The notes under the pieces: model-generated
What the model saw: only the letters and a program-made list of their open reading frames with translations
What the model was told of the DNA's origin: nothing
The model's database searches: none
DNA from: an uncultured Alphaproteobacteria bacterium
GTDB taxonomy: Bacteria; Pseudomonadota; Alphaproteobacteria; Rhizobiales; Xanthobacteraceae
Assembly (NCBI GenBank): GCA_963795865.1
Contig: CAWCJX010000057.1
Coordinates: forward strand, 105,490-169,489
Direction of reading: 5' to 3'
Length of the DNA stretch: 64,000 bases
Part shown: in pieces, positions 5,125-53,738 of the stretch
Layout: each line of letters starts with the position of its first letter
Numbering within the stretch: position 1 is the first letter of the stretch
Made by a program: the position numbers and the translations under genes

Positions 5125-7131
5125 ATGCGTCCCGGTGGTGCGGCCCGAACAGATGGTTCGCTTCCGTCTGGACGGGTCGCCCCACTGCTTCAACGAGTCA
5201 GTGGGCTGACTTGTCCCGACATGGGCACCGGTGTTGGGCACCAGTGTCGGGGCGCAGACCACCAGCGGTGGCGTGGGTCGAGGCAAGTGAGATCGTCGCA
5301 GCCCATCGGGGATTACCTGGACGCGCTGGTGCATCCGTCGGCACGCCCGGACGAGGTGATCGCGGCGCGCCACCGGGCCTTCATCGCCGCACGGCTGGTT
5401 GTAAGCCTGTTCGGGCTCGCCGCCCTGCCGGTGTTCCTCGCGGTGCGCGGTGTTCCGAGTGTTCTCGAATTCATCATTCTGGTTTGGACCATCGCTCCCA
5501 TCGCGGCGGCCTGTTACCTGTCGTGCACCGGCCGCTATGAAAGCGCCCATCTCGTTTCCGCACTGGTGCTGGCGAGCGTCGCGATCGCCGTCGCGATGCA
5601 TTGCGGCGGCATCAATTCGATCGCCGCCATCTGGCTGGTGCTGATCCCGCTGGAAGCGGCGGTGTCGGCGTCGCGGCGCGTGGCGGCGGCCGCGGCCACG
5701 CTGGCGCTCGGCGGCGCGGCGCTGTCGATGCTGGCCAATCCAGCCGCCGAGATGCCCACAAGCGCGCAACAGGCCGGCGTCCTCGCCGCGCTCGGCATCC
5801 TGTCGGCCTTGCTTTATGCGACCGCCATCGCATGCGGCGCCGAGCGGATCGCACGTGCTGCTTCTCGGCGGTTCGTCGCCGAACAGGAGCGCTGCCGCCT
5901 GCTCGCGGGCAATATGTCCGACGTGGTGACGCGCCACGGCGCCGACGGCCGGGTGCTGTTCGTCTCGGCCAATGCGCAGGCCGTTCTCGGCATCGCCGCG
6001 GGAGAACTCCACGGGCTCGGGCTGTTCGACCGCATCCATGTCGGCGACCGGCCGGCGTTCCTGACCGCGCTCTCCGATGCGGCGGCGAACGGATCGACCG
6101 GCAACGTCGAATTCCGCATCCGCCGCGCCAGGCTCGGCGACGATGAGGGCGGCTTCGTCCGGGTCGAGATGCAATGCCGGCCGCTCGATCCGCAGGAGCG
6201 GCCGCAGGCCGGCTCTGCCGGCCGCGAGGTCGTCGCGGTGATGCGCGACGTGTCGAAGCAGAAGGCCCAGCACCAGGCCCTGATCGATGCGCGCGCCGAG
6301 GCCGAGCGCGGCAATGCCGCCAAGAGCCGGTTTCTCGCCGTCATGAGCCACGAGTTGCGCACGCCGCTCAATGCCATCATCGGCTTCTCGGACATGCTGC
6401 TCGACGCGGAGCGGTTTCGCATCGACGCCGCGCGCCGCCAGGAATACGTGCGGATGATCAACGATTCCGGCGCACACCTGCTAGCGGTGGTGAACGGCAT
6501 TCTCGACGTATCGCAGCTGGAGACCGGCAATTTCGAAATCGCGCCGGAACGGTTCAATCCGGCGGCGGTGATCGAGGGCTGCCGCGAACTGCTCGCGCTC
6601 AAGGCCAAGGACGTCGGCGTGGCGCTCCAATGCAATGCGCCATCGGACCTGCCGGACATCGTCGCCGACCCATGCGCGCTGAAGCAGATCGTGATCAACC
6701 TCGTCGCCAATGCGCTGAAGTTCACCAACCGCGGCGGCACGGTGACGATCGACGCCGCGGTCGACCGCCAGCATCTCGTGGTATCGGTCGAGGATACCGG
6801 CATCGGCATCGCGCCCGAGCACTTCGGCCGGCTCGGCGATGCTTTCTTCCAGGTGCGCGGATCCTACGCCCGCACCCATGACGGCACCGGCCTCGGCCTT
6901 TCCATCGTCAAGGGGCTCGTGCAGTTGCATGGCGGCGAGGTCAGCATGCTCAGCCGGGTCGGGCGGGGGACGCGGGTGACCGTGCGGCTTCCGCTCGACT
7001 GCGAACGCCGGTGCGCCGTCGAGCCGGTCCGCAAGATCGCGCGTCCCGGGGAGATCGAATATCCGGCCGCGCCGCCGTTTACCGCAAGGGCTCCGGGCCG
7101 CTTCAAGGCAGCCGCAAAGAAAAGTGCGTGA
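5125..7131 (+). CDS. Membrane-bound PAS-domain sensor histidine kinase (HisKA/HATPase_c)
   Basis: 668-aa ORF with several N-terminal TM helices and a PAS-like middle region. H-box MSHELRTPLNAIIGFSDML; N and G boxes NLVANALKFT, DTGIGI, GTGLGLSIV. Start uncertain: in-frame GTG at 5287 after GAGG is an alternative. Confidence 0.85.
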   Translation: MRPGGAARTDGSLPSGRVAPLLQRVSGLTCPDMGTGVGHQCRGADHQRWRGSRQVRSSQPIGDYLDALVHPSARPDEVIAARHRAFIAARLVVSLFGLAALPVFLAVRGVPSVLEFIILVWTIAPIAAACYLSCTGRYESAHLVSALVLASVAIAVAMHCGGINSIAAIWLVLIPLEAAVSASRRVAAAAATLALGGAALSMLANPAAEMPTSAQQAGVLAALGILSALLYATAIACGAERIARAASRRFVAEQERCRLLAGNMSDVVTRHGADGRVLFVSANAQAVLGIAAGELHGLGLFDRIHVGDRPAFLTALSDAAANGSTGNVEFRIRRARLGDDEGGFVRVEMQCRPLDPQERPQAGSAGREVVAVMRDVSKQKAQHQALIDARAEAERGNAAKSRFLAVMSHELRTPLNAIIGFSDMLLDAERFRIDAARRQEYVRMINDSGAHLLAVVNGILDVSQLETGNFEIAPERFNPAAVIEGCRELLALKAKDVGVALQCNAPSDLPDIVADPCALKQIVINLVANALKFTNRGGTVTIDAAVDRQHLVVSVEDTGIGIAPEHFGRLGDAFFQVRGSYARTHDGTGLGLSIVKGLVQLHGGEVSMLSRVGRGTRVTVRLPLDCERRCAVEPVRKIARPGEIEYPAAPPFTARAPGRFKAAAKKSA

Positions 7132-7699
7132 CATGAATTCCATGGGCGGAATAGCCGACTTCTTCAGGCGCAGCCTCGCACCGCTGGTGGCGGCGCGACT
7201 GCCCTCCGTGCTGCGCTTTTTGGTGAGCCATCGCCGCGACGTCATCGGCGCGGTAGTCGCGGCCGGTGCGGTCACGTTGATTCTGGTCAACGGGCTGTTC
7301 ATGCAATCGGGCCCGCATCCGGCGCCGATCTTTGCGATCAAGCCGCTCCCGGTGGTCTCCAACGAACCGACTGGAGCCGTGCTGCCGCGGCCGCGCCCGC
7401 CCGCGGCCGAGAGCGCGAGGTTCGATCCGGTGCCGACGCCGCGTCCGCGGGTGCAGCCGGCCGCTTCCCGCAACGATCCGATCGCCGACCTCATCAACCC
7501 GCCCCGGCCGCTGAGCGCGGTGCAGCGCGCGCTCAACGAATACGGCTATGGCCCGGTCAAGGCGAGCGGCGTCGCCGACGAGGCCACCCGCGCGGCGATC
7601 TCGCGGTTCGAGAAGGACCACAATCTGCCGGTCACCGGACAGGTCACGCCGCGATTGCGGCGCGAGTTGAGCGCGGCCATCGGCCGCCCGCTGGATTGA
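7124..7699 (+). CDS. Peptidoglycan-binding domain protein (membrane anchored, Pro-rich linker)
   Basis: 191-aa ORF with an N-terminal TM helix. C-terminal LSAVQRALNEYGYGPVKASGVADEATRAAISRFEKDHNLPVTGQVTPRLRREL resembles PG_binding_1. Overlaps the kinase stop by a few nt. Confidence 0.7.
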   Translation: MRDMNSMGGIADFFRRSLAPLVAARLPSVLRFLVSHRRDVIGAVVAAGAVTLILVNGLFMQSGPHPAPIFAIKPLPVVSNEPTGAVLPRPRPPAAESARFDPVPTPRPRVQPAASRNDPIADLINPPRPLSAVQRALNEYGYGPVKASGVADEATRAAISRFEKDHNLPVTGQVTPRLRRELSAAIGRPLD

Positions 7700-7736
7700 T
7701 TTGCCAGCGCGCCCGCGGGCGCTTATGCAAACGGCC

Positions 7737-8084
7737 ATGCGTCTGAAATCGGGATTTTGGGTCGCGGCCTATATCAGGCGCTGCAATGTCGAGGGCCTGT
7801 TCGCCGCGGTGCGCCGGCATGGTGCCGAAGAAGCGGGCGCGATCTTCATCAAGGTCAATCGCCTCGACGGGACGGCCGACCTGTACGGGCCCGCGCCGCA
7901 ATCCGCATTCGGGGCGCAAAGTCCGTCCGACCGGGCGTTCAGCGCCGCCCTCAAGGCGATGCCCGCCGCCGAAGAGCAGGTGGAAGCCTACCTTGCAAGC
8001 CAGGTCCGTTTCGATCCGGACCTCTGGATCATCGAGAGCGAAGATCGCGCCGGCCGGCACTTTCTCGATCAGATCGTGAAGTGA
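7737..8084 (+). CDS. DUF1491 family protein
   Basis: ORF 7701..8084. Start taken at MRLKSGFWVAAYIRRCNVEGLFAAVRRHGAEEAGAIFIKVNRLDG, the typical alphaproteobacterial DUF1491 N-terminus (from memory). Confidence 0.7.
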   Translation: MRLKSGFWVAAYIRRCNVEGLFAAVRRHGAEEAGAIFIKVNRLDGTADLYGPAPQSAFGAQSPSDRAFSAALKAMPAAEEQVEAYLASQVRFDPDLWIIESEDRAGRHFLDQIVK

Positions 8085-9003
8085 CGCTGCCCTCCTGGAT
8101 GCGCTCCGACAGCGCGCCGAATCGCGCCCGTAGACCCGCCATCGGCCACTCGCGCGGAACTGCGAGATCGGAGGTGGCTTCCGGCGGCGATGCTGCTTCG
8201 GTGCGCCGCGCCGCGTCGCGCCACAGCGCCAGCAGCCGGATCGCGGCGCTGCGATCGAGTTCATAAGAGAGATTGGTCAGATCGAACACCCGCTCGACGG
8301 AGTGGCCGACGGCAGGATTGACCAGCAGAAGCACGCGCTGCAGCACCGCAATGGGGATGTGCATGGCGATGGCGGCGACCACGATCGGCTCGCCGGAGGC
8401 GTCGTTGAGGATCCGCTCGGACAGGCTGCGGGGCAGTTCGAGGAGGCGCTCGAACTCGCGGATGAATTCGCCGATCCGGCCTTGCAAGGCGGCGGCGTCG
8501 AGCCGCTCGTAGTCCGGCCGTGCCATGTCCTGCATGGCCGGCAGGCTCCCGCCTTCGCATCGCTTCGCGATCAGTGCCAGCAGATTGCGCCGCTCGGCGG
8601 CGGAAGCGGCGAAAAACGCCTCGCCCCATTCGGCCGGTTCGAGCGCCTGTTGTGAGGCGACGGTCGGGCCGGGATTCGACGCCGCGCCGGCCGTCGGATC
8701 GGGCGCACTCGCCGGCGTCGGCGGCGTTGCGGTCGCGGCGTTGTTTGCGAGCCGCTCGGAAATTTCGCCCGGAGCGGCGGAGTGGTTGCGCAGGATGCCG
8801 GCCACGATCGCGCGGGTCGTCTCGTCGACGACGTCGATGAGGCGCTGTGCCAGCTCGGCATATTGCCGCTTTTCCTCGTCGGTATGGGTGGCTCGCTCGA
8901 CATAGAGCGCGGTCAATGCAAGGAGCAAGCGGGCCTTGACGTCGTTGCCGGGCCGATCGGCCAACCCGATCAGGTCCTTCCTGTTGATTGCAGCGGCGGT
9001 CAC
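8029..9003 (-). CDS. DUF2336-like conserved hypothetical protein
   Basis: 324-aa ORF with balanced composition. Convergent with the DUF1491 gene and overlapping it by 56 nt, so its 3' end could be artificially extended. Family assignment from memory only. Confidence 0.5.
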   Translation of the reverse strand: MTAAAINRKDLIGLADRPGNDVKARLLLALTALYVERATHTDEEKRQYAELAQRLIDVVDETTRAIVAGILRNHSAAPGEISERLANNAATATPPTPASAPDPTAGAASNPGPTVASQQALEPAEWGEAFFAASAAERRNLLALIAKRCEGGSLPAMQDMARPDYERLDAAALQGRIGEFIREFERLLELPRSLSERILNDASGEPIVVAAIAMHIPIAVLQRVLLLVNPAVGHSVERVFDLTNLSYELDRSAAIRLLALWRDAARRTEAASPPEATSDLAVPREWPMAGLRARFGALSERIQEGSVTSRSDRESAGRRDLRSR

Positions 9004-9166
9004 GCGGTTCCCCCAGGTGCCGGGATTGGAATCAGCGTCCGTTATAAGCGGCGGCGCGTTAGCGACGCGTTAACCTCAACGACACCCTAAGCCGTCGGAA
9101 TCGGGGCCTGTGATCCGGCTGTTCCAAAGTCACGCCCCCGGGCACGCCCGTGCGCGGCGTTGCGGC

Positions 9167-9664
9167 TCAGGCCTCGTCCGCGTGGTCGGGCAGGACCAGA
9201 TAGATCAGCACCATCAGGATGGTCGCGAAGAAGCGGAAGGCGTCGGGCACGCCATTCCACTTCGGCGACATCCACATCCCGAACCACTCGCCGCCGATCG
9301 ACATGAAACCGACCTGCCAGACGAGGAAGCCGAGCGTCAGGCCGGCGATGCCGAACCCCTTGGCCCGATTGAATGCGGCTGCGTCGCCATGGGCCAGCAG
9401 CAGCCGGGCGGCGCCGATCCAGCACAGGATCGCCGTCAGCGTCTCTGCCGCGATGATCAGCATGTAGCCGGCATTTTGCAGCGTCGGATTGTCGATGGCG
9501 CGATATCTTATGGTCGCGGTTGGGTACACCGTGTCCATCGAGAGGACATGCTGCACGAAGGCCCAATTCGTTCCGTAGTCGGTGATGTTGCCGAAAGCGA
9601 CCAGGCTCGCAAACAGGGCAATCGCCGCAACCGTCGCGGCTTTCGACAGGCGAATGATCCGCAT
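9167..9664 (-). CDS. DUF2165 family small integral membrane protein
   Basis: ORF 9167..9718. Start at MRIIRLSKAATVAAIALFASLVAFGNITDYGTNWAFVQHVLSMDT...GGEWFGMWMSPKWNG. Four predicted TM helices. Confidence 0.65.
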   Translation of the reverse strand: MRIIRLSKAATVAAIALFASLVAFGNITDYGTNWAFVQHVLSMDTVYPTATIRYRAIDNPTLQNAGYMLIIAAETLTAILCWIGAARLLLAHGDAAAFNRAKGFGIAGLTLGFLVWQVGFMSIGGEWFGMWMSPKWNGVPDAFRFFATILMVLIYLVLPDHADEA

Positions 9665-9772
9665 CTCGTCCTTCCTGATCAGGCGTCGATCCACCCGAAC
9701 ATATCGATCGCGGCGCAAAGCAAAAGGCCCCGGCGAACCGGGGCCTCGTTGCAGCGCCGTCGGTCCGGACGG

Positions 9773-14406: not shown

Positions 14407-16122
14407 ATGGCAAGACGCATCGGTTCGATTCGCATCGCACTGTTGGCCGGCAGCATGCTGGCCGCCACGCCCATGCTGGCGGCCGACGTGACGCCGGAAC
14501 GGCTCCTCAATCCGGATAAGGAGCCGCAGAACTGGCTGATGAACCACCGCACCTATGACGGCCAGCGCTTTTCGCCGCTTGGGCGGATCAACCGCGACAA
14601 CGTCAAGAACTTGAAGCTCGCCTATGCGGTGCCACTCGGCGGCGGCGCGGGCAACGAGTTCGCCAACGCAACGCCGCTCGCCGAAGACGGTTTCCTCTAC
14701 GTCACGGATTCCTGGAGCGTCCTTTATAAGATCGACGTCCGCTCCGGCGACCTCGGCCGCATCGTGTGGCGCATGGACCCCAAGCAGGATCGCCAGACGC
14801 GCTCCCGCGGCGCGGCGCTGTGGGGCAACCTCGTCATCACCGGTGCCGGCGGTTTCGGCAACTCGCCGCGCATCATCGCGACCGACAAGGACACCGGCAA
14901 GGTGATTTGGGAAACCTCGTTCTCCGACACGCCGGACGTGACCTTCACCGCAGCGCCGCTTGCGATCAAGGACAAGATCATCGTCGGTGCGGCCAATGGC
15001 GACCAGGGCGTCCGCGACTGGATCGCTGGTCTCGATGCTGCGACCGGCAAGCGCCTGTGGCTCAAATATACAATTCCGGCCCCTGGCGAACCTGGCAGCG
15101 AAACCTGGAAAGGCAACACCAATGCTTGGCGCACCGGAGGCGGCGCGGTGTGGGTAACGGGCACTTACGATCCCGTCACCAACCAGACCCTCTGGGGAAC
15201 CGGCAACCCGGTCCCGATGTTCGATCCGTTCTATCGGCCGGGCGACAACCTCTACACCAACAGTGTGATCTCTTGGAATCCCGACACCGGCAGCATGAAC
15301 TGGTATTTTCAATTCACGCCGGGCGACATGTGGGACTACGACGAGGTTGGCACCCATATCCTGATCGACGGACAGGTCGGCGGGCAATCGCGCAAGCTGA
15401 TTACGCATTCGGCGCGTAACGGCTTTCTCTACACCATGGAGCGCGCCAATGGCGCGATGGTGCTTGCCAAGCCCTATACGGAGGTCAACTGGACCAAAGG
15501 CATCGACCAGAAGACCGGCAAGCCGCTCGAGTACGATCCCACCAAGGACATTCAGACCTACGCGGGCGTCGGCAACCTCAATCCGAACGAGCCGCCCAAG
15601 AAGGTCTGTCCGTCACTGCTGGGCGGCAACAACTACTGGCCGAGTTCCTACAGCTCGAAAACCAGGCTCGTATACATCCCGGCTTTGTCGAACTGCTCGA
15701 CGATTACGATCGACCGGGAAAAGCACAACAAGGAGAGGGGCTGGAATGGCGGCCTTGCTTCCACCGTCGAACGGTGGGAAAGCGACCTGAAGGCTGTCGA
15801 CCCGCTGACCGGAGAGATCAAGAAGAGCGTGCACCTGAGCTACCCGAATTTCAGCGGTACGCTCGCGACCGGCGGCGGGCTCGTATTTCTCGCGCTGCTG
15901 GATGGCACGGTTGCGGCGTTCGATGACACCACGCTCGACGAGTTGTGGAAAATCAATGTCGGTTCGGGCTTTTCCGCGCCGCCGATGACGTTCGAAGTCA
16001 ATGGCAAGCAATATATCGCGATCGTGTCGGGACCGAGCCCGGCAGCCAGAACGAGGCTCGTCAATACGCCGGAACTCCGAGAGCAGCGCAATGCAGTCGT
16101 GTTGCACGTGTTCGCGTTGTGA
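14407..16122 (+). CDS. PQQ-dependent dehydrogenase, methanol/ethanol family, divergent clade (copy 1)
   Basis: ORF 14356..16122. Start MARRIGS at 14407 follows GGGAGG. Signal peptide ends MLAADV. Eight-bladed quinoprotein hallmarks: GTGNPVPMF, RPGDNLYTNS, PGDMWDYDEVG, CPSLLGGNNYW, LWKINVGSGFSAPPMTF. There is no vicinal Cys-Cys anywhere; only 2 Cys in the mature protein. Confidence 0.9.
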   Translation: MARRIGSIRIALLAGSMLAATPMLAADVTPERLLNPDKEPQNWLMNHRTYDGQRFSPLGRINRDNVKNLKLAYAVPLGGGAGNEFANATPLAEDGFLYVTDSWSVLYKIDVRSGDLGRIVWRMDPKQDRQTRSRGAALWGNLVITGAGGFGNSPRIIATDKDTGKVIWETSFSDTPDVTFTAAPLAIKDKIIVGAANGDQGVRDWIAGLDAATGKRLWLKYTIPAPGEPGSETWKGNTNAWRTGGGAVWVTGTYDPVTNQTLWGTGNPVPMFDPFYRPGDNLYTNSVISWNPDTGSMNWYFQFTPGDMWDYDEVGTHILIDGQVGGQSRKLITHSARNGFLYTMERANGAMVLAKPYTEVNWTKGIDQKTGKPLEYDPTKDIQTYAGVGNLNPNEPPKKVCPSLLGGNNYWPSSYSSKTRLVYIPALSNCSTITIDREKHNKERGWNGGLASTVERWESDLKAVDPLTGEIKKSVHLSYPNFSGTLATGGGLVFLALLDGTVAAFDDTTLDELWKINVGSGFSAPPMTFEVNGKQYIAIVSGPSPAARTRLVNTPELREQRNAVVLHVFAL

Positions 16123-16561
16123 GTGAGCGATCGTAAATGGCGTGATCGGCGACTGAGGTTAGGGCGGGGCCGAGGATCACTCTTCGCCCCGGAACACGGT
16201 TTCGCCGCTGCTGCGCTGCAAAGTCGGTGCCGCACATGGGTCTTGTGTCAAGAGTAACGCCGGTCGACACGGCGTCGCGTAACTGTACGAGAGATGAAGG
16301 AGGGCCCTTCGACAGATTTACGGCCTGTTGGCAGTCCGTCCCGACGATGATGTACTCAGCCCCAATGTTATGAACTTAGGTGCTGACGCCGAACGGGGGC
16401 GTGTCGTCCACCAGCGTCCAGGCGGCTCTTTTGGTCCCACATCAAGCGCCCAATTGCGTTGAGTTCGATGTACAATGCTATCGTCCCGCCGGCATCAAGA
16501 CGGTGCAAAACGGTCTTGCCCTGGCGGGTGATACAAAGCCACAAGAAAGAGGGGAACGATA

Positions 16562-17401
16562 ATGTCCTCGTTCACGTTGAGAGAACTTGCACTCGCAAGC
16601 AGCATCGTGGCTGGCCTCGCAGCATCGTGGGCCATCCCGGCGGCGGCGCAAGAAAAGACAAGTCCGCCCATTTTCTCCCCTGACCTCAGCGTTGGGTGGA
16701 TCGGGGTAGGTGAGTTCCAACCAGTTCCGGGCGAGGTGCCGCCGCTCAAGCAGGATTCAAAATATCCCTTCGTTCCCAACGGCACGGGCCGTCAACCGAC
16801 GTATCGGATTGCCGATCTGACCAATCCGAACCTGAAGCCCTGGGTGAAGGAGATCATGAAAAAGGACAACGACGAAGTGCTCGCGGGCAAGATCGCCTAT
16901 TCGCCAAGCCAGAGTTGCATGCCGGCCGGTGTTCCCGGTTTCCTGGCCTTGGGCGGAAATAACAACCCGTACTGGTTCCTGCAGACCCCCAAAGAAGTCT
17001 GGATCATGCGCGCGGCCGATTCGCAGGTCCGCCGCGTCTACCTCGATGTGCCCCATTCGGCTAATCCCAAGCCGTCCTGGTACGGCGAGTCGGTTGGCCA
17101 CTATGAGGGCGACACGCTGGTGATCGATACGATCGGGCTCAACGCCAAGACCTACGTGGACAATTACCGCACACCGCATACCGAGAAGCTGCACGTCATC
17201 GAGCGCTGGCGAATAGCCGACGACGGCAAGGCAATGGAAGCAACCGTCACGGTCGACGACCCGGACACCTACTACCAGCCCTGGTCCGGGACGCGACGGT
17301 ATCGGCGCGTCAATCAGCGGTACGTGGAGGACATCTGCGCCGAGAACAACCAGCAACTGTTCGACTACAAGATTCCGATCGCAAGCAAGGCGGATTTCTG
17401 A
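16562..17401 (+). CDS. Secreted protein of an unrecognised family (paralogue 1)
   Basis: 279-aa ORF. Signal peptide MSSFTLRELALASSIVAGLAASWAIPAAAQ. Conserved blocks are shared with 17544..18470 and 52879..53738: SQSCMPAGVP, RRVYLD, PSWYGESVGHYEGDTLVIDT, VEDICAENN. Confidence 0.7.
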   Translation: MSSFTLRELALASSIVAGLAASWAIPAAAQEKTSPPIFSPDLSVGWIGVGEFQPVPGEVPPLKQDSKYPFVPNGTGRQPTYRIADLTNPNLKPWVKEIMKKDNDEVLAGKIAYSPSQSCMPAGVPGFLALGGNNNPYWFLQTPKEVWIMRAADSQVRRVYLDVPHSANPKPSWYGESVGHYEGDTLVIDTIGLNAKTYVDNYRTPHTEKLHVIERWRIADDGKAMEATVTVDDPDTYYQPWSGTRRYRRVNQRYVEDICAENNQQLFDYKIPIASKADF

Positions 17402-17543
17402 TCGGGATCGGCTACATGCGAGGCGCCACGTACTTGGCCGCCTTCGCATGGCATATCTCAATTGCCAGCTTCGCCGACATCATTTTCTATCTTAGACTGA
17501 CCGATAGTGTCGAAAATCAAGCCCCGTGAAAAGGGAGGAGAGC

Positions 17544-18470
17544 ATGACTTTACAGCGGTGGGATTTCCTTTTGGCAGTGACACTGGCGGCAGCGGCTGCG
17601 ACGCCCGCCTTTGGGCAGGCGGTGCCCACGGTTGCACCAGCCAATAGCAGCAAGGAAAGCGTTGCATCGATCCCGGATTTCTCCGGCATATGGCGTCACG
17701 GGTCGCTTCCCTGGTTCGAGCCGCCGGAATCGGGCCCCGCTCCGGTGACTAACAGGTCGCGCAAGAACGGAGTGAGCAACTATGACCAGCTGGTCGGTGA
17801 TTACACCAATCCGATCCTGAAGCCGTGGGCGGCGGAGGTCGTAAAGAAGTACGGCGAAATCTCGCTGGCCGGAGTGACCTTTCCGAGCCCCTCAAACCAG
17901 TGCTGGCCCGAACCCGTGCCGTACATTTTCAAGCATGGCGCAATGCAGATGCTGCAGCAGCCGGACAAGATCACGATCCTTTACAACGAGGATCACGAAG
18001 TCCGCTGGGTCCGCATGAACCAGCCTCATCCGGCGCAGGTGACGCCGTCGTGGCATGGCGATTCCGTCGGCCGTTACGAGGGCGACACGTTGGTGATCGA
18101 CACGGTGGGGGTCAAGACCGACCGGCCGTTTGCCATGATCGACCTGTTCGGCACGCCGTACACCAAGGCTTTGCACGTGGTGGAACGCTACTCTCTGCTC
18201 GATTACGAAGCCGCGAAAGGCGCGTTGGAACGCGGCGACAAGGAGCTCATGCGCAACCAGGGCCCCCTCAATCTCAATTACACCGGCAACTACCTGCAGA
18301 TCCATCTCACTGTTGAGGATGAGGGCGCCTTCACGACGCCGTGGACTGCGACCATAACTTATGCGCTCGATCCCGCGGAATGGCGGGAAGTTGTCTGCGC
18401 CGAAAACATGCATGAATACTATTCCAACAAGGACTCGGAGGTCCCGACCGCTGCCAAGCCGGATTTCTGA
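17544..18470 (+). CDS. Secreted protein of the same unrecognised family (paralogue 2)
   Basis: ORF 17526..18470. ATG at 17544 is directly preceded by GGGAGGAG. Signal peptide MTLQRWDFLLAVTLAAAAATPAFGQ. Blocks SNQCWPEPVP, VRWVRM, PSWHGDSVGRYEGDTLVIDT, REVVCAENM. Confidence 0.7.
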   Translation: MTLQRWDFLLAVTLAAAAATPAFGQAVPTVAPANSSKESVASIPDFSGIWRHGSLPWFEPPESGPAPVTNRSRKNGVSNYDQLVGDYTNPILKPWAAEVVKKYGEISLAGVTFPSPSNQCWPEPVPYIFKHGAMQMLQQPDKITILYNEDHEVRWVRMNQPHPAQVTPSWHGDSVGRYEGDTLVIDTVGVKTDRPFAMIDLFGTPYTKALHVVERYSLLDYEAAKGALERGDKELMRNQGPLNLNYTGNYLQIHLTVEDEGAFTTPWTATITYALDPAEWREVVCAENMHEYYSNKDSEVPTAAKPDF

Positions 18471-18487
18471 GCCGGCGGGCCAACCCA

Positions 18488-18899
18488 TCATTCCGCAGCT
18501 TCACTCCCGGCAGGCCCGTCAAGTAGCGGCAGCTCAAGTCCGTCGATTTCGAGCAGGCTGCGGCCAGCGCCTTGCGGCCTGCATGTCGCTGAACCGTTCG
18601 ACGACGGCCCCGACGCGATGCCTGAACCGCCGGTTGGTCAGGTACTGCTGCACCAGTTCCGTCTTGGTCTGCTGGCCTTCGCCAGCGAGCCGCGCGGCCG
18701 CCGCCCGATCAATGACTCGCCCAAGGCGATGCACGGCGTCGGCGCACCGCGGTTCCGTCACCCAGACTCCGTCGATCGGATCAAAGGTCTGCAAGCCCTT
18801 CGGCAGCGCGTGCGACACGATCAGCGCCATGTCGGCCTTGGCCGCCCGTTGATCTTCCCGGACCGATGGGCGATCCAATCGGTGAAAGGCAAACGCCAT
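18488..18899 (-). pseudogene. DUF2130-family protein, C-terminal remnant with internal deletion/frame change
   Basis: ORF 18534..18899 reads ...DQRAAKADMALIVSHALPKGLQTFDPIDGVWVTEPRCADAVHRLGRVIDRAAAARLAGEGQQTKTELVQQYLTNRRFRHRVGAVVERFSDMQ. A different frame then gives ...SLLEIDGLELPLLDGPAGSEAAE-stop. The N-terminal two thirds of the family are missing. Family assigned from memory. Confidence 0.5.
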
Positions 18900-19036
18900 T
18901 CCAGAAATGGTTTCCCCTCCTTTCGCGATGTGTTCTGCATCGCTCGGCCGGGCATGACAAAGCGGAAGAATGGCGATAGGTTGGTCGATGAGGCGGCCAG
19001 GCTGACGAAACGCGGCGCCACAAGGAGGAGGAATTC

Positions 19037-20146
19037 ATGAAACTTATTCGGACAGTTGCACTCGCCGGCGCTGCCGCGTTCGCGCTCATGGGGACGGTTG
19101 CGGTCGCGCAGCAGGCGCCGAAATTCGAGATCGATGCGAGCTGGCCCAAGCCGCTGCCGAACAATTGGATCTTCGGGCAGATCGGCGGCATCTTTGTGGA
19201 CAAGGACGACAATGTCTGGATCAGCCAGCGCCCGCGCACGGTGAATGATCGGGACAAGCGCGCCGAGCGTGGCGACAAGTCGATCTGCTGCTACACCGCC
19301 CCCTCAGTCGTCGAGTTCAATCAGGCGGGCGACGTGGTCAAGTCATGGGGCGGACCAAAAACCGCCCAGGGCTATGACTGGCCACAAAACGAGCACGGCA
19401 TGTTTATCGACTACAAAGGCAATGTCTGGCTCGGCGGCAACGGCGAGAACGACGGCATGGTCCTGAAGTTCACCAACGACGGCAAATTCCTCATGTCGAT
19501 CGGCAAGTCTGCCAAGCAGACCAACAGTCTGGATCAAGCGCGCGTCGGCCGCGCCGCCGACATGGTGGTCGATCAGGCGACCAACGAACTCTATGTGGCC
19601 GATGGTTACTTCAATCACCGCGTCGTCGTGTTCGACGCCGACACCGGCGCGTTCAAGCGCACCTGGGGTGCCTATGGCAAGCCGCCGACAGACGAGAAGA
19701 TCGCCTATGATCCGAAGGTTCTGCCGCAGCAGTTCAACAATCCGGTGCACGGCATCAGGATCACCGCCGACGGGCAGGTGGTGGTTTCCGACCGCGGCAA
19801 CAACCGCATCCAGGTGTTCCAGAAGGACGGTACCTTTGTGCGCGAAATCCCGGTCTTGCGCGACTCAACAGGGCCGGGCGTGACCGGCTCGACCGTGTTC
19901 TGGCCGGATAAGGGACAGACCTATTGGTTCACCTCGGACGATCCCAATGGCCAGATCCATGTGATCCGCCGCAGCGACGGGCAGGTGGTCGGCAGCTTCG
20001 GGCGCGTGGGGCGTGGTCCGGGTGAGTTCGAAAACCTCCACAATATCGCCATCGACAGCAAGGGCAACATCTACACCGCCGAGGTGCAGGGCCAGCGCGT
20101 GCAGCGCTTCCTCTACAAGGGCGGTCTGCCTGCGGTCGGCCAATAA
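19037..20146 (+). CDS. Secreted NHL-repeat six-bladed beta-propeller protein
   Basis: 369-aa ORF. Signal peptide MKLIRTVALAGAAAFALMGTVAVAQQ. NHL-like blades NELYVADGYFNHRVVVFD, VVVSDRGNNRIQVFQKDG, GNIYTAEVQGQRVQRF. Confidence 0.75.
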   Translation: MKLIRTVALAGAAAFALMGTVAVAQQAPKFEIDASWPKPLPNNWIFGQIGGIFVDKDDNVWISQRPRTVNDRDKRAERGDKSICCYTAPSVVEFNQAGDVVKSWGGPKTAQGYDWPQNEHGMFIDYKGNVWLGGNGENDGMVLKFTNDGKFLMSIGKSAKQTNSLDQARVGRAADMVVDQATNELYVADGYFNHRVVVFDADTGAFKRTWGAYGKPPTDEKIAYDPKVLPQQFNNPVHGIRITADGQVVVSDRGNNRIQVFQKDGTFVREIPVLRDSTGPGVTGSTVFWPDKGQTYWFTSDDPNGQIHVIRRSDGQVVGSFGRVGRGPGEFENLHNIAIDSKGNIYTAEVQGQRVQRFLYKGGLPAVGQ

Positions 20147-20541: not shown

Positions 20542-20570
20542 TGCTAAGGTATTGAATGTGGCTCCGCCGA
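20542..20570 (+). promoter_or_regulatory. Candidate RpoH (sigma32)-type heat-shock promoter for hsp20-lon
   Basis: TTGAA (20542-20546), a 16-nt spacer, then CCCAAATT (20563-20570). Compare the CTTGAA-N16/17-CCCCATNT consensus. Lies ~30 nt upstream of the hsp20 ATG. Confidence 0.3.
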
Positions 20571-23458: not shown

Positions 23459-23754
23459 GATAGGCGTCCCGGATAGGCTGCGCTGGCCGAGGGCGCCTCG
23501 CGATTTTCGAGCGCCTCCTGATGACCGACCGGCCGATCAAAGCTTGTTGTTTCCGCTGGGTTCTCGGGGTTGCGGTACTTCGGAGCCGCAGGCCCATCCG
23601 ACGCTCCGCTGCCGCCGAAGCCGGCCAGCTTTGACAGCTCTGATTCGAGCGACCGTCCTTATCTTCGTATGAGATGCCCGCCGGCGCACGCTTTCGACCG
23701 CTCCAGCCTTGTGGCAGAATGGGGTCGCGCTATTCACGCGGATGGGACTTCGAG

Positions 23755-24844
23755 ATGCGCCTCATTGCAGTGTTGGCTTGCGCGGTGACATTGGCTTGCA
23801 GCGGGGCTGTGTGCAGCCACGCCGACCCGCGCGTGGCGCTCATTATCGGCAATTCCGCCTATCGTAACGTCAGCCCGCTCGATAATCCGACGACGGACGC
23901 CAGGCTGATGGCCGAGACCTTGCGTGGTCTCGGTTTCACGGTGGTCGGCGGCGGGGCCCAGCTCGATCTCGACAAGGCCGGTATCGACCGCGCGGTGCAA
24001 GCCTTCGGAGCGCGCCTGCAGGGCGCCGAAGTCGGCCTATTTTACTACGCCGGCCATGGTCTGCAGGTGCACGGTGCCAACTATCTGGTGCCGGTCGATG
24101 CCAATCCGACGCGGGAGGCTGACGTCGATTTCCAGATGCTGGATTCCAACTTGGTGCTGCGCCAGATGGAGGCGGCCGGCACAAAACTCAATCTGGTGAT
24201 CCTCGACGCCTGCCGCAATAACCCGTTCGGCGGCCGAGGGTTGCGCGACACGTCGAGTGGCCTCGCCCAGATGCGGGCGCCCGAAGGCACGCTTATTTCG
24301 TTTGCGACCCAGCCCGGCAACGTCGCGCTGGACGGCGTCGACGGCCACAGCCCATTCACGAAGGGCGCTCGCCAATATCATCCGGCAGCCGGGGCTTGGC
24401 CTGTTCGATACCTTCAACCAGGTCGGCCTCGCGGTGCGCCAATCGACCGGCGGCGCCCAGCAGCCCTGGGTATCGAGCTCGCCGATCGCCGGCTCGTTTT
24501 ATTTCGCCGGGCCGGCCGTGGCGCCATCGCCGGCGCCGGTCCCCGTCACCCGGCCGCCGCCGGTTTATATGGCGCCGCCGACCCAAGCCGCCAGAGATTT
24601 CATATTTCCGGACTCCAGCCAGCGCATCATCACCGGGCCAGAGCTCGACCGTTTGTCGCGCGCCGAACTCGATATTGCCCGCAACGAGATTTTTGCGCGG
24701 CGTGGCCGCTATTTCCAACGCGACGACCTCAAGCGGCATTTCAGCGCGTTCTCTTGGTATCGCCCGAACTCTTGGGACCCGCCCTTGAACCCAATCGAGC
24801 GGGCGAATGTGGAAGCGATGCGCCAGGCCGGGGCGCGCCGATGA
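23755..24844 (+). pseudogene. Secreted caspase-family (peptidase C14) protein with C-terminal YARHG domain, frame broken once
   Basis: The first part of ORF 23674..25623 starts at MRLIAVLACAVTLACSGAVCSHA. It continues VALIIGNSAYRN..., YYAGHGLQV (catalytic His) and LVILDACRNNPF (catalytic Cys), up to ...HSPFTK. It then continues in ORF 24257..24844: ALANIIRQPGLGLFDTFNQV...FIFPDSSQRIITGPELDRLSRAELDIARNEIFARRGRYFQRDDLKRHFSAFSWYRP (YARHG). Extra G in the GGG run at 24363-24365. Confidence 0.8.
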
Positions 24845-25623
24845 GGGCTGCGCGAAGCGTGCCGGTTTTCGCGCTAATCGCAGCGATCGCCGCTTCGATT
24901 GCCTCGACGGCGCGCGCCGGCGATCCGCTCGACGTGCTCGTTGCGAGCTATCCCGACGCGCTGGTTCGTCACGATGATCGGGCCCTGCGCTGGCGCGACG
25001 GGACCGCGATGCCCGTCTCCGACGGTGTTGCGAACAAGCCGTTCGAGACGCTGCTGCGTTACGCCTCGATCCTCGATCAGTTTTCTGTGCCGTATCGGCG
25101 CGGCCCGCTGTCGAAGCCTCCGGGCCCCAACGAGGATCCCGGACGATTCCGCAACACCGCCTTTTTCCGAAAGATGTATGGCGACTGCGACAAGGGCGAA
25201 GTGTCCTCCCGCCTCGTTTCGATCCCGTGGCTTGCAAAAACGTGGGGCAAGCCGGTGCGCATCACTTCGGTCAATCATGTGGACGAGCGCTTGCGCGCAG
25301 TGTCGGTGGAGATCGACGTCCTTCCCGACAACATCAAACGCGCCGCCTACCCGATTGCCGGCACGTATAATTGTCGCGTGGTCGCCGATACCAAGCAACC
25401 GAGCCCGCATGCCTTCGGCATCGCCATCGATCTCAACCTCGGCTTCTCGGATTATTGGTACTGGGGCCGCACCCGCGACGGGTCGTTGCCCTACCGCAAC
25501 CGCATGCCTCAGGAAATCGTCTCGATCTTCGAGAGGCAAGGCTTCATCTGGGGCGGCAAATGGAATCATTTCGACACCATGCATTTCGAATATCGACCGG
25601 AACTGCTGGCCGACGGGCCGTGA
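24841..25623 (+). CDS. Secreted M15-family metallopeptidase (D-Ala-D-Ala carboxypeptidase / hedgehog-fold)
   Basis: In-frame tail of ORF 23674..25623, starting at ATG 24841, which overlaps the upstream stop (ATGA). Signal peptide MRAARSVPVFALIAAIAASIASTARA. SPHAFGIAIDLN and GFIWGGKWNHFDTMHFEY are the H-x-x-x-x-x-x-D ... H zinc site typical of M15. Confidence 0.75.
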   Translation: MRAARSVPVFALIAAIAASIASTARAGDPLDVLVASYPDALVRHDDRALRWRDGTAMPVSDGVANKPFETLLRYASILDQFSVPYRRGPLSKPPGPNEDPGRFRNTAFFRKMYGDCDKGEVSSRLVSIPWLAKTWGKPVRITSVNHVDERLRAVSVEIDVLPDNIKRAAYPIAGTYNCRVVADTKQPSPHAFGIAIDLNLGFSDYWYWGRTRDGSLPYRNRMPQEIVSIFERQGFIWGGKWNHFDTMHFEYRPELLADGP

Positions 25624-30332: not shown

Positions 30333-32054
30333 TTACAACCCGAATACGAACAGCATGGTTTGGTTTCGCATCTCGCGCAACTCGGGCGACAGGACGAGCC
30401 TGCCCTTGGAAATCTGACTCAGTCCCGACATGATGGCGATATATTGCCTGCCGTCCGCCTCGAAGGCAATTGGCGGGGCATTGAAGCCGCTTCCGACATT
30501 GATCTTCCACAGCTGCTCGAGGCTTACGTCATCATAGGCGGCAAACGATCCATCGCCAAAGCCCGTGAACAAAAGGCCGCCGGCTGTCGTGAGGGCGGCG
30601 CTGTAGTTTGGATAGGGAACGCGCACCCGGTTCTTGACCTCGCCGGTGAACGGATCGGCGACGACGATGTCGGATTCCGTCCGCGCGAGAAACTTGACCC
30701 CGCCACCCAACATCGACCCGGTGATGGGGTTCCTGAGCTGGTCTGGGGTCATCGTGACTTCGTTACAGGTCGGTCGCGACGGAATGTAGAGCAGCTTGGT
30801 CCTGGGGCTGTACGACGCCGACCAGTAATTGTTGCCGCCCTCATGCGACGGGCACAGCTTCTTGGTGCGGTCCGTCAATGTCTGATTTTGCAGGCCTGAA
30901 TAGACCTGGATGTCCTTGGTGGGATCGTAATCGATCGGCAGGCCGGTCTTCTGATCGATGCCCTTGGTCCAGTTGATTTCGTCGATATAAGGTTTGGCCA
31001 GCAGGGTCTGCCCGTTGGTGCGTTCGAGGGCGTACAGGAAGCCATTGCGCGCCGAATGCGTCACCAGCTTGTGCGGTTGGCCGGAAACCAAGCCGTCGAT
31101 CAGAATGTGCGTGCCGGCCGCATCGTAATCCCACATGTCGCCCGGGACGTACTGGTGATACCAGTTCATCTTGCCCGTGTCGGGATCCCAGGAAATCAGA
31201 CTGTTGGTGTAGAGATTGTCGCCCGGGCGGTAGTAGGGATTGTACATCGGCACCGGATTGCCGGTGCCCCACAGGACCTGGTTGGTGGCGACATCATAGG
31301 AGCCCGTGACCCACATGGCGCCGCCGCCGGTCTGCCACGCGTTGTTCTTGTCCTTCCATGTCTCGGAGCCGGGTTCGCCGGGGGCCGGGACTGTGTATTT
31401 TCGCCATAGCACCCTGCCGGTCGCACCGTCGAGCGCCGCGATGAAATCCCGAACGCCGCGGTCGCCGCCGGCAGCGCCGATCACGATCTTGTCCTTCACA
31501 GCGAGCGGCGCAGCGGTGAGCTGTAGGTCGGCTTGCCCGTCGGAGAGATTGGATTCCCAGGCAACCTTGCCAGTCTGCTTGTCGGCGGCGATGACGCGCG
31601 CCGGGTAATTGGCGACGCTGATCACGAGATTGCCCCACAACGCCGCGCCGCGGTTGGCGAGAGGCAGCTTCTCCTGGCCCGGGTCCATGCGCCACAGGAT
31701 GCGGCCGACATCGCCGGAGCGCCCGTCGATCTTGTAGACCACGCCCCATTGGTCAACCACATACAGGAACCCGTCCTCGGCAAGCGGCGTCGCCTCCAGA
31801 TTTTCGTTCACCGAGCTGCCACCGATCGCGACCGCATAGGCGAGCTTCAGGTTCCTGACCGTCGCCTTGTTGATCGTGTCGAGAGGTGAGTACCGCTGGG
31901 CATCATAGGTGCGGTGGTTCATCAGCCAGTTGCCCGGCTCCGGGTTGGCGAGCCGCTCGGGCGTGACATCGGCTGCGACGGCCGGTGCCGCCGCAAGCAT
32001 GACGGCGCTTGCGAGCAGCGGGCTGCACAAGGAACGATGATGACGCCATTGCAT
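30333..32054 (-). CDS. PQQ-dependent dehydrogenase, methanol/ethanol family, divergent clade (copy 2)
   Basis: ORF 30333..32159. ATG at 32054 is preceded by GGGAGG. Signal peptide MQWRHHRSLCSPLLASAVMLAAAPAVAADV. Roughly two thirds of positions are identical to copy 1 by eye. PGDMWDYDAAG, GAAGGDRGVRD, CPSHEGGNNYW. No Cys-Cys. Confidence 0.9.
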   Translation of the reverse strand: MQWRHHRSLCSPLLASAVMLAAAPAVAADVTPERLANPEPGNWLMNHRTYDAQRYSPLDTINKATVRNLKLAYAVAIGGSSVNENLEATPLAEDGFLYVVDQWGVVYKIDGRSGDVGRILWRMDPGQEKLPLANRGAALWGNLVISVANYPARVIAADKQTGKVAWESNLSDGQADLQLTAAPLAVKDKIVIGAAGGDRGVRDFIAALDGATGRVLWRKYTVPAPGEPGSETWKDKNNAWQTGGGAMWVTGSYDVATNQVLWGTGNPVPMYNPYYRPGDNLYTNSLISWDPDTGKMNWYHQYVPGDMWDYDAAGTHILIDGLVSGQPHKLVTHSARNGFLYALERTNGQTLLAKPYIDEINWTKGIDQKTGLPIDYDPTKDIQVYSGLQNQTLTDRTKKLCPSHEGGNNYWSASYSPRTKLLYIPSRPTCNEVTMTPDQLRNPITGSMLGGGVKFLARTESDIVVADPFTGEVKNRVRVPYPNYSAALTTAGGLLFTGFGDGSFAAYDDVSLEQLWKINVGSGFNAPPIAFEADGRQYIAIMSGLSQISKGRLVLSPELREMRNQTMLFVFGL

Positions 32055-51364: not shown

Positions 51365-52739
51365 TCATCCCCTCACTCGCAGGCGGAAGCGCGCGGGGCG
51401 GTCGGGCTGCGTCGTGATCACGGTGACCGGCAGCACGGGCGTTTCGTCGGCGAGCGCAAATTCGAATCGCTGCACCAGCATCGCCAGCACCAGGCCGGCC
51501 TCGGCCAGGGCAAATTGGGCGCCGACGCAGATGCGCGGACCGGCGCCGAACGGCAGATAGGCGAAGCGGTGCGCCGGCGGCTTGTCGCCGACAAAGCGGG
51601 AGGGATCGAAGGCGTCGGGATCGTTCCACAGGCGCACGTGCCGGTGCAGCACCCACGGGGATATCATGACCAGCGATCCGCCGGGGATGGCGGCGCCGTC
51701 CACCCGGTCATCCGCGATGGCGACGCGCGCGATCGCGGCCGCGGGCGGATAGAGGCGCAGCGCCTCGTTCACCACCGCGCGCGTATAAGGCAGCTTCGGC
51801 AGCGCCGCGCCGGCCGCTTCGATCGAAAGATCGATCGCGGCCACCTCTTCCGCCACCCGGTTCTGCTCGGCCGGCGCCGATGCCAGGAGATAAAGCGACC
51901 AGAACAGCGTGAGCGCGGTCGTCTCGTGGCCGGCGACGATCATGGTCGCCACCTGGTCGCGCAACTGGGCCGGCGAAAACGCCGCCCCGGTTTCGGGGTC
52001 GCGCGCCGCGAGCAGGACGTCGAACAGGTCCCGCGGCTGGTCGCTCGGCGGTTCGCGCAGCCGTGCCGCGACGATCTCGTCCATCAGGCCGATCCAGCGG
52101 GTGCGAAACCGCGCCCGGGCGAGGTCGCGCCACGACGGAATTCCGACCGGCAGCATCAGGTCGAGAAAGTAAGGCCGCCCGAGGCTGGCCGCGAAGTCCG
52201 GAGATCATCCGCCGCAGCGCCGGACCATAGCGGTGCATCTCGAGGGAGAACATCGAGCGCGCCGCGACCTCGAGGGCGAGGAACTGCATCGCGGCGAGGA
52301 GGTCCACGGGTTGCGAGGCGTCGGCGGCGAGGCGCGCGATCGCCTCCTGCGCGGCGCCGGCCACGTGCCGGGCGAGCATGGGAAGGACGCGCGGCGCGAG
52401 CGTCGGGGCGATGGTCCGGCGCTGGTGCCGCCACTCCTCGCCTTCGCTCAGGATCAGGCCTTCGCCGACGATCGGACGCAGGATCCGTACCGTGGCCGAG
52501 GTCCGCCGGTAGTTCGCGGTGTTGTCGACCAGCACATGGTGGATCGCATCGGGAGCATTGAGCAGGAAGCGTTTGCGACCGAGGAAGCTTTGGGCCAGCA
52601 CGTCGCTGGAGTAGGCCTCGCGCGGCCAGATCTGCAGCGCATTGGTGCGGAGCGCGACCAGCAGGCGATACCAGCCCAGACTGTGCTCCGGCGGCGCCGG
52701 GCGCGGGGGAACGAAATGCTGGCGCGTGTGCGCGTTCAT
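51365..52739 (-). pseudogene. Cytochrome P450, frame broken once
   Basis: ORF 51708..52739 gives the N-terminal half, MNAHTRQHFVPPRP...EGEEWRHQRRTIAP...RYGPALRRMIS. ORF 51365..52156 gives the C-terminal half: (DFAASLGRPYFLD)LMLPVGIPSW...VAGHETTA...EALRLYPP...FLPFGAGPRICVGAQFA (haem Cys loop). One-base excess at 52198-52201. Confidence 0.85.
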
Positions 52740-52878: not shown

Positions 52879-53738
52879 CTACTTCCGCACCTCTTTGAAA
52901 TACCTCAGATCGGGCGGCGGCTGGTCCTTCCTGGTGGGCATCAGCCTGCCTTCGCTGCTCTTGAAATAGGTTTCATTGCCGATCTTGATGAGCACGTTGT
53001 CGCCGATGCAGTCGTATTCCAGCCAGTTCGGATAGGCATCGGGATTGCGGCTATAGGTCTTGAGCACCTTCCAGGGGCGCGTGAACGCATGGTCGATCAA
53101 CGTGATCTCGTCGGTCAGGAGAGTAGGCTTGCTCCTGTCGAACGAGATGCGCTCCTTGACGATGGATTGATTGTCGGCATGGGTCGGCATGCCCGACGGG
53201 TCCAGGGTGCGCGGACCCTTGAAGTGGCGGGTTTCGACCTCGAGCACGTTGAAGTGGCCGTCACCGTTCTCGTCGATCCATTTGCCGATGGAATAGCCGA
53301 GGAAACTCGGCTCGACCTCCTTCGGCCAGTCGCGTCCGTCGGTATAAATCCGTCGGTGGGAATCGTGGACATGATCGATCAGGACATAGGTGATTTCCGG
53401 CAGCACGACGATTTCCATGGCCTGGAACAGGCTCATCATTCCCGGCATGCCGGGCGGAAGGCAAATGGCGCCGGTGTGCCAGTTGCCCTGTCCGCCGGCG
53501 GCCTGATCGGCCAGGCTCGCCTCGAGAACCTTCTGATACTCCGGGGTCAAAGGGGCCTGTTGTCCGAGACCCCAGGGCTTGTACGGATCGAAGCCTGGCT
53601 GTCCCCGACTCCGGGGATGCGGACGGCGAGCCATTGCCCGGCCAGGTCGGGATATTTGGAATCGTCGAAGGCCCGGGCGTCCGTGGCCACCAGCGCTGCC
53701 GCAAGGACAACGGCCGAGACTGCGCTCCTCCACAGCAT
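52879..53738 (-). pseudogene. Secreted protein of the unrecognised family (paralogue 3), frame broken once
   Basis: ATG at 53738 follows AGGAGG. MLWRSAVSAVVLAAALVATDARAFDDSKYPDLAGQWLAVRIPGVG lies in the frame of ORF 53547..54419. ORF 52879..53877 then continues: GQPGFDPYKPWGLG...GAICLPPGMPGMM...HRRIYTDG...PSFLGYSIGKW...LEYDCIGDN. One base is missing in the CCCC/GGGG run at 53603-53606. Confidence 0.65.

Follow-up and report, generated by a model that had tools for sequence, protein, structure and literature searches.

Proteins of a large unnamed family, predicted to be secreted beta-barrels, are encoded beside a PQQ dehydrogenase-family gene in an uncultured Xanthobacteraceae bacterium

We analysed a stretch of 64,000 nucleotides (the window) from an uncultured alphaproteobacterium of the Xanthobacteraceae (GenBank assembly GCA_963795865.1, contig CAWCJX010000057.1, positions 105,490 to 169,489 of the forward strand). 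Two adjacent genes in this window, together with a third about 35 kb away, encode proteins of one family, referred to here as copies 1, 2 and 3. Copies 1 and 2 lie downstream of a gene for a pyrroloquinoline quinone (PQQ) dehydrogenase-family protein, PQQ1. Loci and contigs from other genomes and metagenomes are given L numbers. The genes concerned, with lengths in amino acids (aa), are:

14407..16122, plus strand: PQQ1, PQQ-dehydrogenase family, 439 bp upstream of copy 1; DYD motif, no vicinal Cys-Cys
16562..17401, plus strand: copy 1, 279 aa, signal-peptide-like N-terminus, conserved Cys119 and Cys259, intact
17544..18470, plus strand: copy 2, 308 aa from the ATG at 17544, conserved Cys120 and Cys285, intact
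52879..53738, minus strand: copy 3, from a divergent subfamily, frame broken in the window; intact form 286-293 aa

The initial annotation of this DNA had described two adjacent paralogues of 279 and 308 aa, and open reading frames (ORFs) of these lengths indeed occupy the two positions. Copy 1 is preceded by the Shine-Dalgarno sequence agaggggaacgataATG and is present as an identical gene in the metagenome contig L080. A strong Shine-Dalgarno sequence, gggaggagagcATG, stands ahead of the copy 2 ATG at 17544, and we judged the alternative upstream start, a GTG at 17526, to be less likely. All of the motifs quoted in the annotation were located, namely SQSCMPAGVP, SNQCWPEPVP and GAICLPPGMP around the first conserved Cys of copies 1, 2 and 3 respectively, VRRVY, VRWVR and HRRIY, the stretch GDTLVIDT that is identical in copies 1 and 2, and EDICAENN, EVVCAENM and EYDCIGDN around the second Cys. 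The pair had also been placed 'directly downstream' of the PQQ gene; it is downstream, across a gap of 439 bp (16123-16561). Promoter and terminator scans and an Rfam search over 16000-19100 returned nothing above background.

Copies 1 and 2 share 35% identity (E 6e-42). Copy 3 is much more divergent (23% identity to copy 1, E 1e-4) and is found at E 1e-9 by a hidden Markov model (HMM) built from relatives of copies 1 and 2 only. The third gene is thus a true family member by homology, as had been proposed, but its span of 860 nt is not divisible by three and its frame is broken in the window. The annotation had been unable to assign the proteins to a named family, and our searches bear this out: no Pfam or NCBIfam family matched any of the three copies at E<=1, and no PDB chain sequence was matched at E<=10 by copy 1, copy 2 or a 52-sequence profile (phmmer, hmmsearch). 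Each copy has at least 8000 homologues among 5.8 billion proteins searched, and those listed for the three copies are all unnamed or 'hypothetical protein', none with a Pfam domain. A profile search of 1.84 billion cluster representatives recovered 15,268 proteins at E<=1e-3, of which 8,086 reach E<=1e-10, which gives a family of about 15,000 clusters at 50% identity. Some relatives of 450-530 aa contain two family domains and no other Pfam domain; likewise, ten proteins of 390-530 aa searched for fusion partners hold a repeated family domain and no Pfam or NCBIfam domain.

The genomic distribution was assessed in a scan of one genome per species, which yielded more than 531 relatives, of which the best 79 loci, from 33 assemblies, were analysed. 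These loci were found with the alignment of copies 1 and 2 and are biased towards members resembling them. The assemblies are mostly metagenome-assembled genomes (MAGs) of Alphaproteobacteria (Xanthobacteraceae, Micropepsaceae, Hyphomicrobiales), with some MAGs labelled Bordetella. The 79 loci hold 192 family genes in total, and from these top loci alone there are at least 19 copies in one MAG and at least 10 in eight MAGs. Same-strand tandem arrays are frequent, with up to eight family genes (L034, L057, L069), and sphingomonad megaplasmids carry several copies each. This is therefore a very large family with neither name, domain model nor structure in abundant soil and peat Alphaproteobacteria (Xanthobacteraceae, Micropepsaceae and sphingomonads). 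It merits a domain model at minimum, and it is easily defined because of its conserved Cys pair and its G-x-W, GDTLV(I/V)(D/E)T and ER motifs.

As to their location, all three copies begin with a hydrophobic stretch followed by an Ala-rich cleavage-type motif, ending ...AIPAAAQEK in copy 1, ...TPAFGQAV in copy 2 and ...TDARAFDD in copy 3. Inspection and hydropathy thus agree with the signal peptides that had been assigned to each copy, and a similar N-terminal hydrophobic stretch is present in 88 of 101 diverse representatives of the family (23-58% identical to copy 1). Judged by these sequence features, the three proteins would be Sec-exported and periplasmic. Each has exactly two Cys, at positions 119/259, 120/285 and 93/244, spaced 140-165 residues apart. 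Among the representatives the two positions are kept in 97% and 93%, and in 84 of the 101 the mature part contains just these two Cys, both at the conserved positions. Two conserved Cys in a secreted protein point to a structural disulfide, which the pair probably forms. A Cys-Cys disulfide had been suggested together with a role as redox partner; the conserved pair agrees with the former, whereas the latter is at odds with the absence of haem and CxxC and with Cys residues about 140 positions apart. Nor did the Pfam and NCBIfam searches of the three copies give any thioredoxin-family match.

Further conserved positions are numerous. Across the 101 representatives the most conserved are, besides C119 and C259, P125, Q141, R157, H165, G175, S177, E182-G183-D184, L186, D189, T190, D200, P205, H211, E214, R215, D233, W241 and E256. 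Those invariant in all three subfamilies are P36, W46, P61, G109, C119, P125, R157, G175, L186, T190, D200, P205, D233, P240, W241, E256, C259 and D278.

We then modelled copies 1 and 2 with AlphaFold2 (mean pLDDT 73.7 and 77.3, pTM 0.73 and 0.75, respectively). Both models share one topology. The first strand (about residues 45-54) is followed by a long segment of lower confidence, by a helix of 15 residues (93-107) and a short one (126-130), and finally by eight up-and-down strands, for which pLDDT mostly exceeds 85. In copy 2 an additional helix (residues 221-234) is inserted between two barrel strands. Searched against the PDB with Foldseek, both models returned as top matches only chains of the fatty-acid-, cellular retinoic acid- and cellular retinol-binding proteins (FABP, CRABP and CRBP), members of the intracellular lipid-binding proteins (iLBPs), with probabilities of 0.97-1.0 and target TM scores of 0.45-0.53. 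The first strand carries an (S/A)-G-x-W motif with an invariant Trp46 (consensus DLSGxW; VGW in copy 1), and a last-strand Arg is conserved in at least 90% of sequences, copy 2 having Leu there. A first-strand G-x-W together with a last-strand basic residue is the signature of the calycin superfamily. The core of the family thus looks like an antiparallel beta-barrel or 'clam' of calycin/iLBP (FABP, CRABP) type, a likeness in the predicted models that falls short of established membership. The AlphaFold and Foldseek check proposed in the initial annotation therefore gave weak matches to iLBP-type barrels and no confident match to a well-characterised family.

The genes around family members offer a second line of evidence. 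Direct neighbours are heterogeneous (160 Pfam families among 150 proteins, with no dominant partner). Those that recur are:

TctC: 15 of 84 loci
PQQ dehydrogenases: 12 of 79 loci, within 10 kb of a family gene
NHL-type propellers: 10 loci
Vgb-lyase/SGL-type propellers: 9 loci
Metallo-beta-lactamase (MBL)-fold hydrolases: 9 loci; best NCBIfam match 'quinoprotein relay system zinc metallohydrolase', far below the cut-off
ModA-like binding proteins: 7 loci, beside family genes resembling copies 1 and 2
TonB-dependent receptors: 6 loci
DUF6152: 6 loci, always directly adjacent to a family gene

Genes for VOC/glyoxalase, Amidohydro_2 and dihaem cytochrome c proteins also recur. The two largest arrays (L034:22-10828 and L057:61-10795) each consist of eight family genes with a gene for a secreted tannase/feruloyl esterase (553-613 aa) in their midst. 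DUF6152 adjoins a family gene in 7 of 7 cases in its six loci (8 of 79 loci by tblastn), and a Croceibacterium plasmid has the order DUF6152 - DUF6152 - family gene - TonB receptor. The DUF6152 proteins (for example L040:2409-2846, L088:7946-8350 and L088:8369-8749) have about 100 aa after the signal peptide, and after the predicted cleavage their mature N-terminus reads His-His-Ser-(Tyr/Phe)-Ala-Met-Phe-Asp, in which the His-His could be an N-terminal metal site. In L084, a copy-1 relative of 80% identity has a Crp gene in front of it and no PQQ gene nearby. A link to sulfur scavenging, prompted by a TauD gene that lies upstream within the window and by ssu/tau genes in the vicinity of a Sphingobium homologue, was rejected, since TauD relatives occur in only 1 of 79 family loci.

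How close, then, is the link to PQQ dehydrogenases? PQQ1 itself, whose longest ORF starts at 14356 and whose start as called in L080 corresponds to 14407, matches the Pfam PQQ profile (E 5.8e-54) and scores 464.7 bits against TIGR03075, below the cut-off of 480. We compared 16 PQQ-dehydrogenase-family proteins, the two of the window (14407-16122 and 30333-32159) and those of L007, L009, L012, L014, L024, L038, L049, L068 and L079. In 15 of the 16, D-x-D (DYD, DWD, DVD or DLD) occupies the lanthanide-type position, and 15 of the 16 are without the vicinal Cys-Cys of classical methanol/ethanol dehydrogenases; judged by sequence, the PQQ proteins encoded near family genes seem to form divergent quinoprotein clades. 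Among 80 metagenome loci with PQQ1 orthologues (68-95% identity), a family gene is present in 12 and adjacent (<1.5 kb) in 10; of the 26 loci with at least 1.5 kb on both flanks, six have a family gene adjoining the orthologue. The adjoining genes belong to different subfamilies and stand in different orientations. The family is the commonest non-PQQ neighbour of the PQQ1 clade, followed by TctC (6 loci) and by an unannotated protein of about 129 aa (5 of 80 loci; L105:6073-6462 on the minus strand and four others) that has no Pfam or NCBIfam match. ModA-like binding proteins likewise recur near PQQ1 orthologues (4 loci).

In some lineages the arrangement is tight. L009 has a same-strand cluster of a VOC gene (5874-6464), a family gene (6524-7354), a dihaem cytochrome c gene (7381-8163) and a PQQ gene (8160-9761), and the gaps of 59, 26 and -4 bp make it a likely operon. 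Other MAGs (L014, L012 and L079) have a related arrangement that also contains Amidohydro_2 and a second PQQ gene, and the order PQQ - family - NHL of the window recurs in L007 and L012. Elsewhere the two part company: about 85% of family loci lack a PQQ gene within 10 kb, the second PQQ dehydrogenase of the window (30333-32159) has no family gene nearby, and the closest PQQ1 orthologues with long downstream flanks (L089, 95%; L121, 92%; L090, 90%; L095, 86%) have none either. Given tens of copies per genome, we estimate, rather than measure, that family and PQQ genes would be adjacent by chance in a few percent of cases; the association therefore looks real but partial. The neighbourhood check suggested in the initial annotation accordingly revealed enrichment (12 of 79 family loci, and adjacency at 10 of 80 PQQ1 loci) and no conserved synteny. 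Similarly, of the periplasmic accessory function proposed there, secretion is backed by sequence features and the PQQ link is measurable, while the family is not a dedicated PQQ accessory.

The reading to which we tentatively lean is that these proteins are periplasmic, disulfide-stapled, calycin/iLBP-like barrels that act as carriers of small organic compounds, probably of low solubility, for the enzymes and transporters encoded nearby. The predicted core would run from the first strand with its G-x-W, through an insertion of about 80 residues with two helices, to at least eight up-and-down strands, and the proposed disulfide would anchor the C-terminal tail on the helical part. In the periplasm the barrel might exchange its ligands with catabolic enzymes and envelope transporters, either delivering or collecting them. 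On the enzyme side the candidates are the divergent D-x-D PQQ dehydrogenases, tannase/feruloyl esterases, MBL-fold hydrolases and lactonase-like NHL/SGL propellers, and on the transporter side they are TonB-dependent receptors and TctC/tripartite tricarboxylate transporter (TTT) systems; different ligands would be shared out among the many paralogues of a genome. The carrier reading is supported by the fact that the recurrent neighbours are themselves secreted enzymes or envelope transporters, and by the expansion, arrays and diverse catabolic neighbours, a genomic pattern that TctC/Bug and other periplasmic binding families typically show. The delivery of retinol to dehydrogenases by cellular retinol-binding proteins serves as an analogy, and no more, for the proposed hand-over. 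A bolder version, which we consider unlikely, is that we are dealing with a large unrecognised family of periplasmic FABP/CRBP-like substrate chaperones for catabolic enzymes, including lanthanide-type (D-x-D, Cys-Cys-less) PQQ dehydrogenases. If true, it would be a bacterial counterpart of the hand-over from retinol-binding protein to dehydrogenase, with tens of ligand-specific paralogues per genome in soil Alphaproteobacteria.

Several observations weigh against a carrier. The Foldseek E-values lie between 1.6e-3 and 2e-3, with none at or below 1e-3, and pLDDT is low around the second Cys. The alignment by hhalign to a five-member iLBP profile had a probability of 0.5%, and the family HMM finds no PDB sequence; since neither profile similarity to iLBPs nor a PDB sequence match is at hand, the fold is assigned from predicted structure. 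Neither experimental data nor literature was found for any family member, and literature searches on 'DUF6152', on PQQ with lanthanide and lipocalin, and on FABP-like with periplasmic and TonB-dependent found no papers. Moreover, the polar residues Q141, R157, H165, S177, E182, D184, D189, T190, D200, H211, E214, R215, D233 and E256 are strongly conserved across about 100 diverse members, a set that one would sooner expect at a catalytic or metal site than in a ligand pocket undergoing diversification. The proteins might instead be periplasmic enzymes, for example hydrolases, lyases, isomerases or cyclases on a calycin-like barrel whose paralogues differ in substrate, a reading that we regard as rather doubtful. 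Such an enzyme would work beside the esterases, lactonase-like propellers, MBL hydrolases and PQQ dehydrogenases on plant-derived esters, lactones and aromatics. Indeed, R157, H165, E182, D184, D189, D200, H211, E214, R215, D233 and E256 are 88-98% conserved in the representatives, R157, T190, D200, D233, E256 and D278 are invariant in all three subfamilies, and the neighbours are mostly catabolic enzymes (tannase, Amidohydro_2, VOC/glyoxalase, aldehyde dehydrogenase and dienelactone hydrolase). However, the proteins have no likeness to any enzyme family in Pfam, NCBIfam or PDB sequences, the structures that match best are carriers without catalytic activity, the copy-3 subfamily lacks His165 and His211, and arrays of six to eight genes of the same family are more usual for binding proteins.

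Two further interpretations concern the link to PQQ genes. The proteins might be dedicated partners of the adjacent D-x-D, lanthanide-type PQQ dehydrogenases, acting in metal or cofactor handling or in thiol/disulfide redox. The adjacency at 10 of 80 PQQ1 loci, which involves various subfamilies and orientations, and the D-x-D, Cys-Cys-less character of 15 of the 16 PQQ proteins fit this idea, as do the acidic side chains in which the invariant residues are rich, the co-occurrence with TonB receptors and with DUF6152 and its mature His-His N-terminus, and the MBL neighbours whose best, if far sub-threshold, resemblance is to 'quinoprotein relay system' metallohydrolases. Yet we consider it improbable, as some 85% of family loci are without a PQQ gene within 10 kb, most PQQ1 orthologues, the closest included, are without a nearby family gene, and none lies near the second PQQ dehydrogenase of the window; dozens of paralogues per genome and arrays beside tannase genes are hard to square with a single-enzyme chaperone, and there is no CxxC, haem or known metal-binding motif. 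Conversely, the PQQ link could be mere co-residence in flexible 'periplasmic catabolism' islands, the family having an unrelated envelope role, for example as a TonB-receptor-associated factor acting with DUF6152. DUF6152 is the sole neighbour that is always adjacent, on the Croceibacterium plasmid as elsewhere, and PQQ1 orthologues lie in contexts entirely unlike the window and share the neighbour set of TctC, NHL, SGL, ModA-like substrate-binding protein and TonB receptor genes. We hold this to be quite unlikely: the tight, operon-like cluster of L009 argues for co-expression with a PQQ enzyme in at least some lineages, and DUF6152 and TonB receptors occur in only about 10% of loci, neither adjoining the copies in the window.

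The family is new as a described entity, yet it most likely belongs to a known kind, the secreted beta-barrel binding proteins, and it can be compared with several known systems. The iLBPs (FABP/CRABP/CRBP) are the sole class among the top PDB structural matches of both models, with the same order of first strand, helices and up-and-down sheet as the predicted models, the G-x-W with its invariant Trp and a mostly conserved last-strand Arg, and the proposed route from carrier to dehydrogenase mirrors that of CRBP with retinol dehydrogenase. They differ in that there is no sequence or profile similarity, in that the structural match is weak (Foldseek E ~2e-3, TM ~0.5), and in that the family proteins are about twice the size, with an insertion of about 80 residues, bacterial, secreted and equipped with a conserved Cys pair. 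The TctC/Bug proteins (PF03401) are likewise periplasmic, with large paralogue expansions and 'orphan' genes beside diverse catabolic genes, and TctC genes occur in the same loci as family genes; however, TctC is an alpha/beta Venus flytrap, whereas the family is predicted to be a beta-barrel and has no Pfam match. Accessory proteins of PQQ clusters (MxaJ/XoxJ-type, and the NCBIfam 'PQQ-dependent catabolism-associated' and 'quinoprotein relay system' entries) are also secreted, of unknown exact role and encoded recurrently beside PQQ dehydrogenases, and the family's MBL neighbours bear a weak likeness to TIGR04558 and TIGR04559. In contrast, the three copies have no NCBIfam homology and the link of the family to PQQ genes is looser, at about 12-23% of loci. 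Finally, a Lipocalin_5 protein (PF13924) directly adjoins a family gene in L001, although the family itself has no Pfam match. Remote homology to Lipocalin_5 was not accepted, since the hhalign probability of 29% is below a meaningful threshold and the alignment is confined to the signal peptide and the first-strand G-x-W region. If the family does comprise carriers or enzymes for plant-derived compounds, it would be a missing component of the extracytoplasmic processing of organic matter by oligotrophic soil bacteria, and its role may help to explain how substrates are supplied to divergent PQQ dehydrogenases.

The broken frame of copy 3 needs to be seen alongside its neighbours, which, together with the gene downstream of the tandem pair, are:

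19037..20146, plus strand: secreted NHL-repeat beta-propeller (Pfam NHL E 9.9e-16), downstream of copies 1 and 2; this neighbour class recurs elsewhere
51365..52739, minus strand: cytochrome P450, co-directional with copy 3 and immediately downstream of it; frameshifted at about 52196, intact with 457 aa in L169
54084..54813, plus strand: Crp/Fnr-type regulator, divergent from copy 3; frameshifted at about 54294, intact with 242 aa in L169

In the window, the signal peptide of copy 3 (frame from 53738) and its body (frame of 52879-53616) are out of frame. DNA comparison with L169 traced the break to a 1-nt deletion that turns a G5 run into G4 at about 53603; in L169 copy 3 is intact with 293 aa, and protein P0241 of this contig, 99% identical to copy 3, reads ...RIPGVGGQPGFDP... 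across the break. Single-base indels lie at 22595 (Lon), 52196 (P450), 53603 (copy 3) and 54294 (Crp), and also at 20544 and 52876. Lon, P450, copy 3 and Crp are all intact in the metagenome contigs used as references, L080 (99.2% identical to the window) and L169 (98.7%). Because the indels of Lon, Crp and P450 are alike and absent from these near-identical contigs, we read the frameshift of copy 3 as an assembly error and rejected the idea that it is a pseudogene. The window thus probably carries assembly indel errors, and other split ORFs in it therefore need care. Relatives of copy 3 adjoin P450, ModA-like binding proteins, TctC-like proteins or a serine beta-lactamase-family gene. Two loci from different metagenomes (L170:3499-4958 and L172:3227-4792) have in common the order unknown 219-aa protein, ModA-like binding protein (PF13531), copy-3-like gene.

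A fixed order ClpS - PQQ - pair - NHL - HSP20 - Lon was considered for the region around copies 1 and 2 and set aside, since ClpS, HSP20 and Lon are shared by no PQQ1-orthologue locus except the near-identical L080. Between copy 2 and the NHL gene, on the minus strand at 18534-18899, an ORF of 121 aa matches only positions 109-212 of the 255-position DUF2130 profile; L080 has it too. This ORF looks like the remains of a truncated gene and hints at an earlier rearrangement here. Further downstream, at 23674-25623 on the plus strand, the window encodes a 649-aa protein in which a caspase-like Peptidase_C14 domain at the N-terminus is paired, unusually, with a Peptidase_M15_4 domain (D-Ala-D-Ala carboxypeptidase-like) at the C-terminus.

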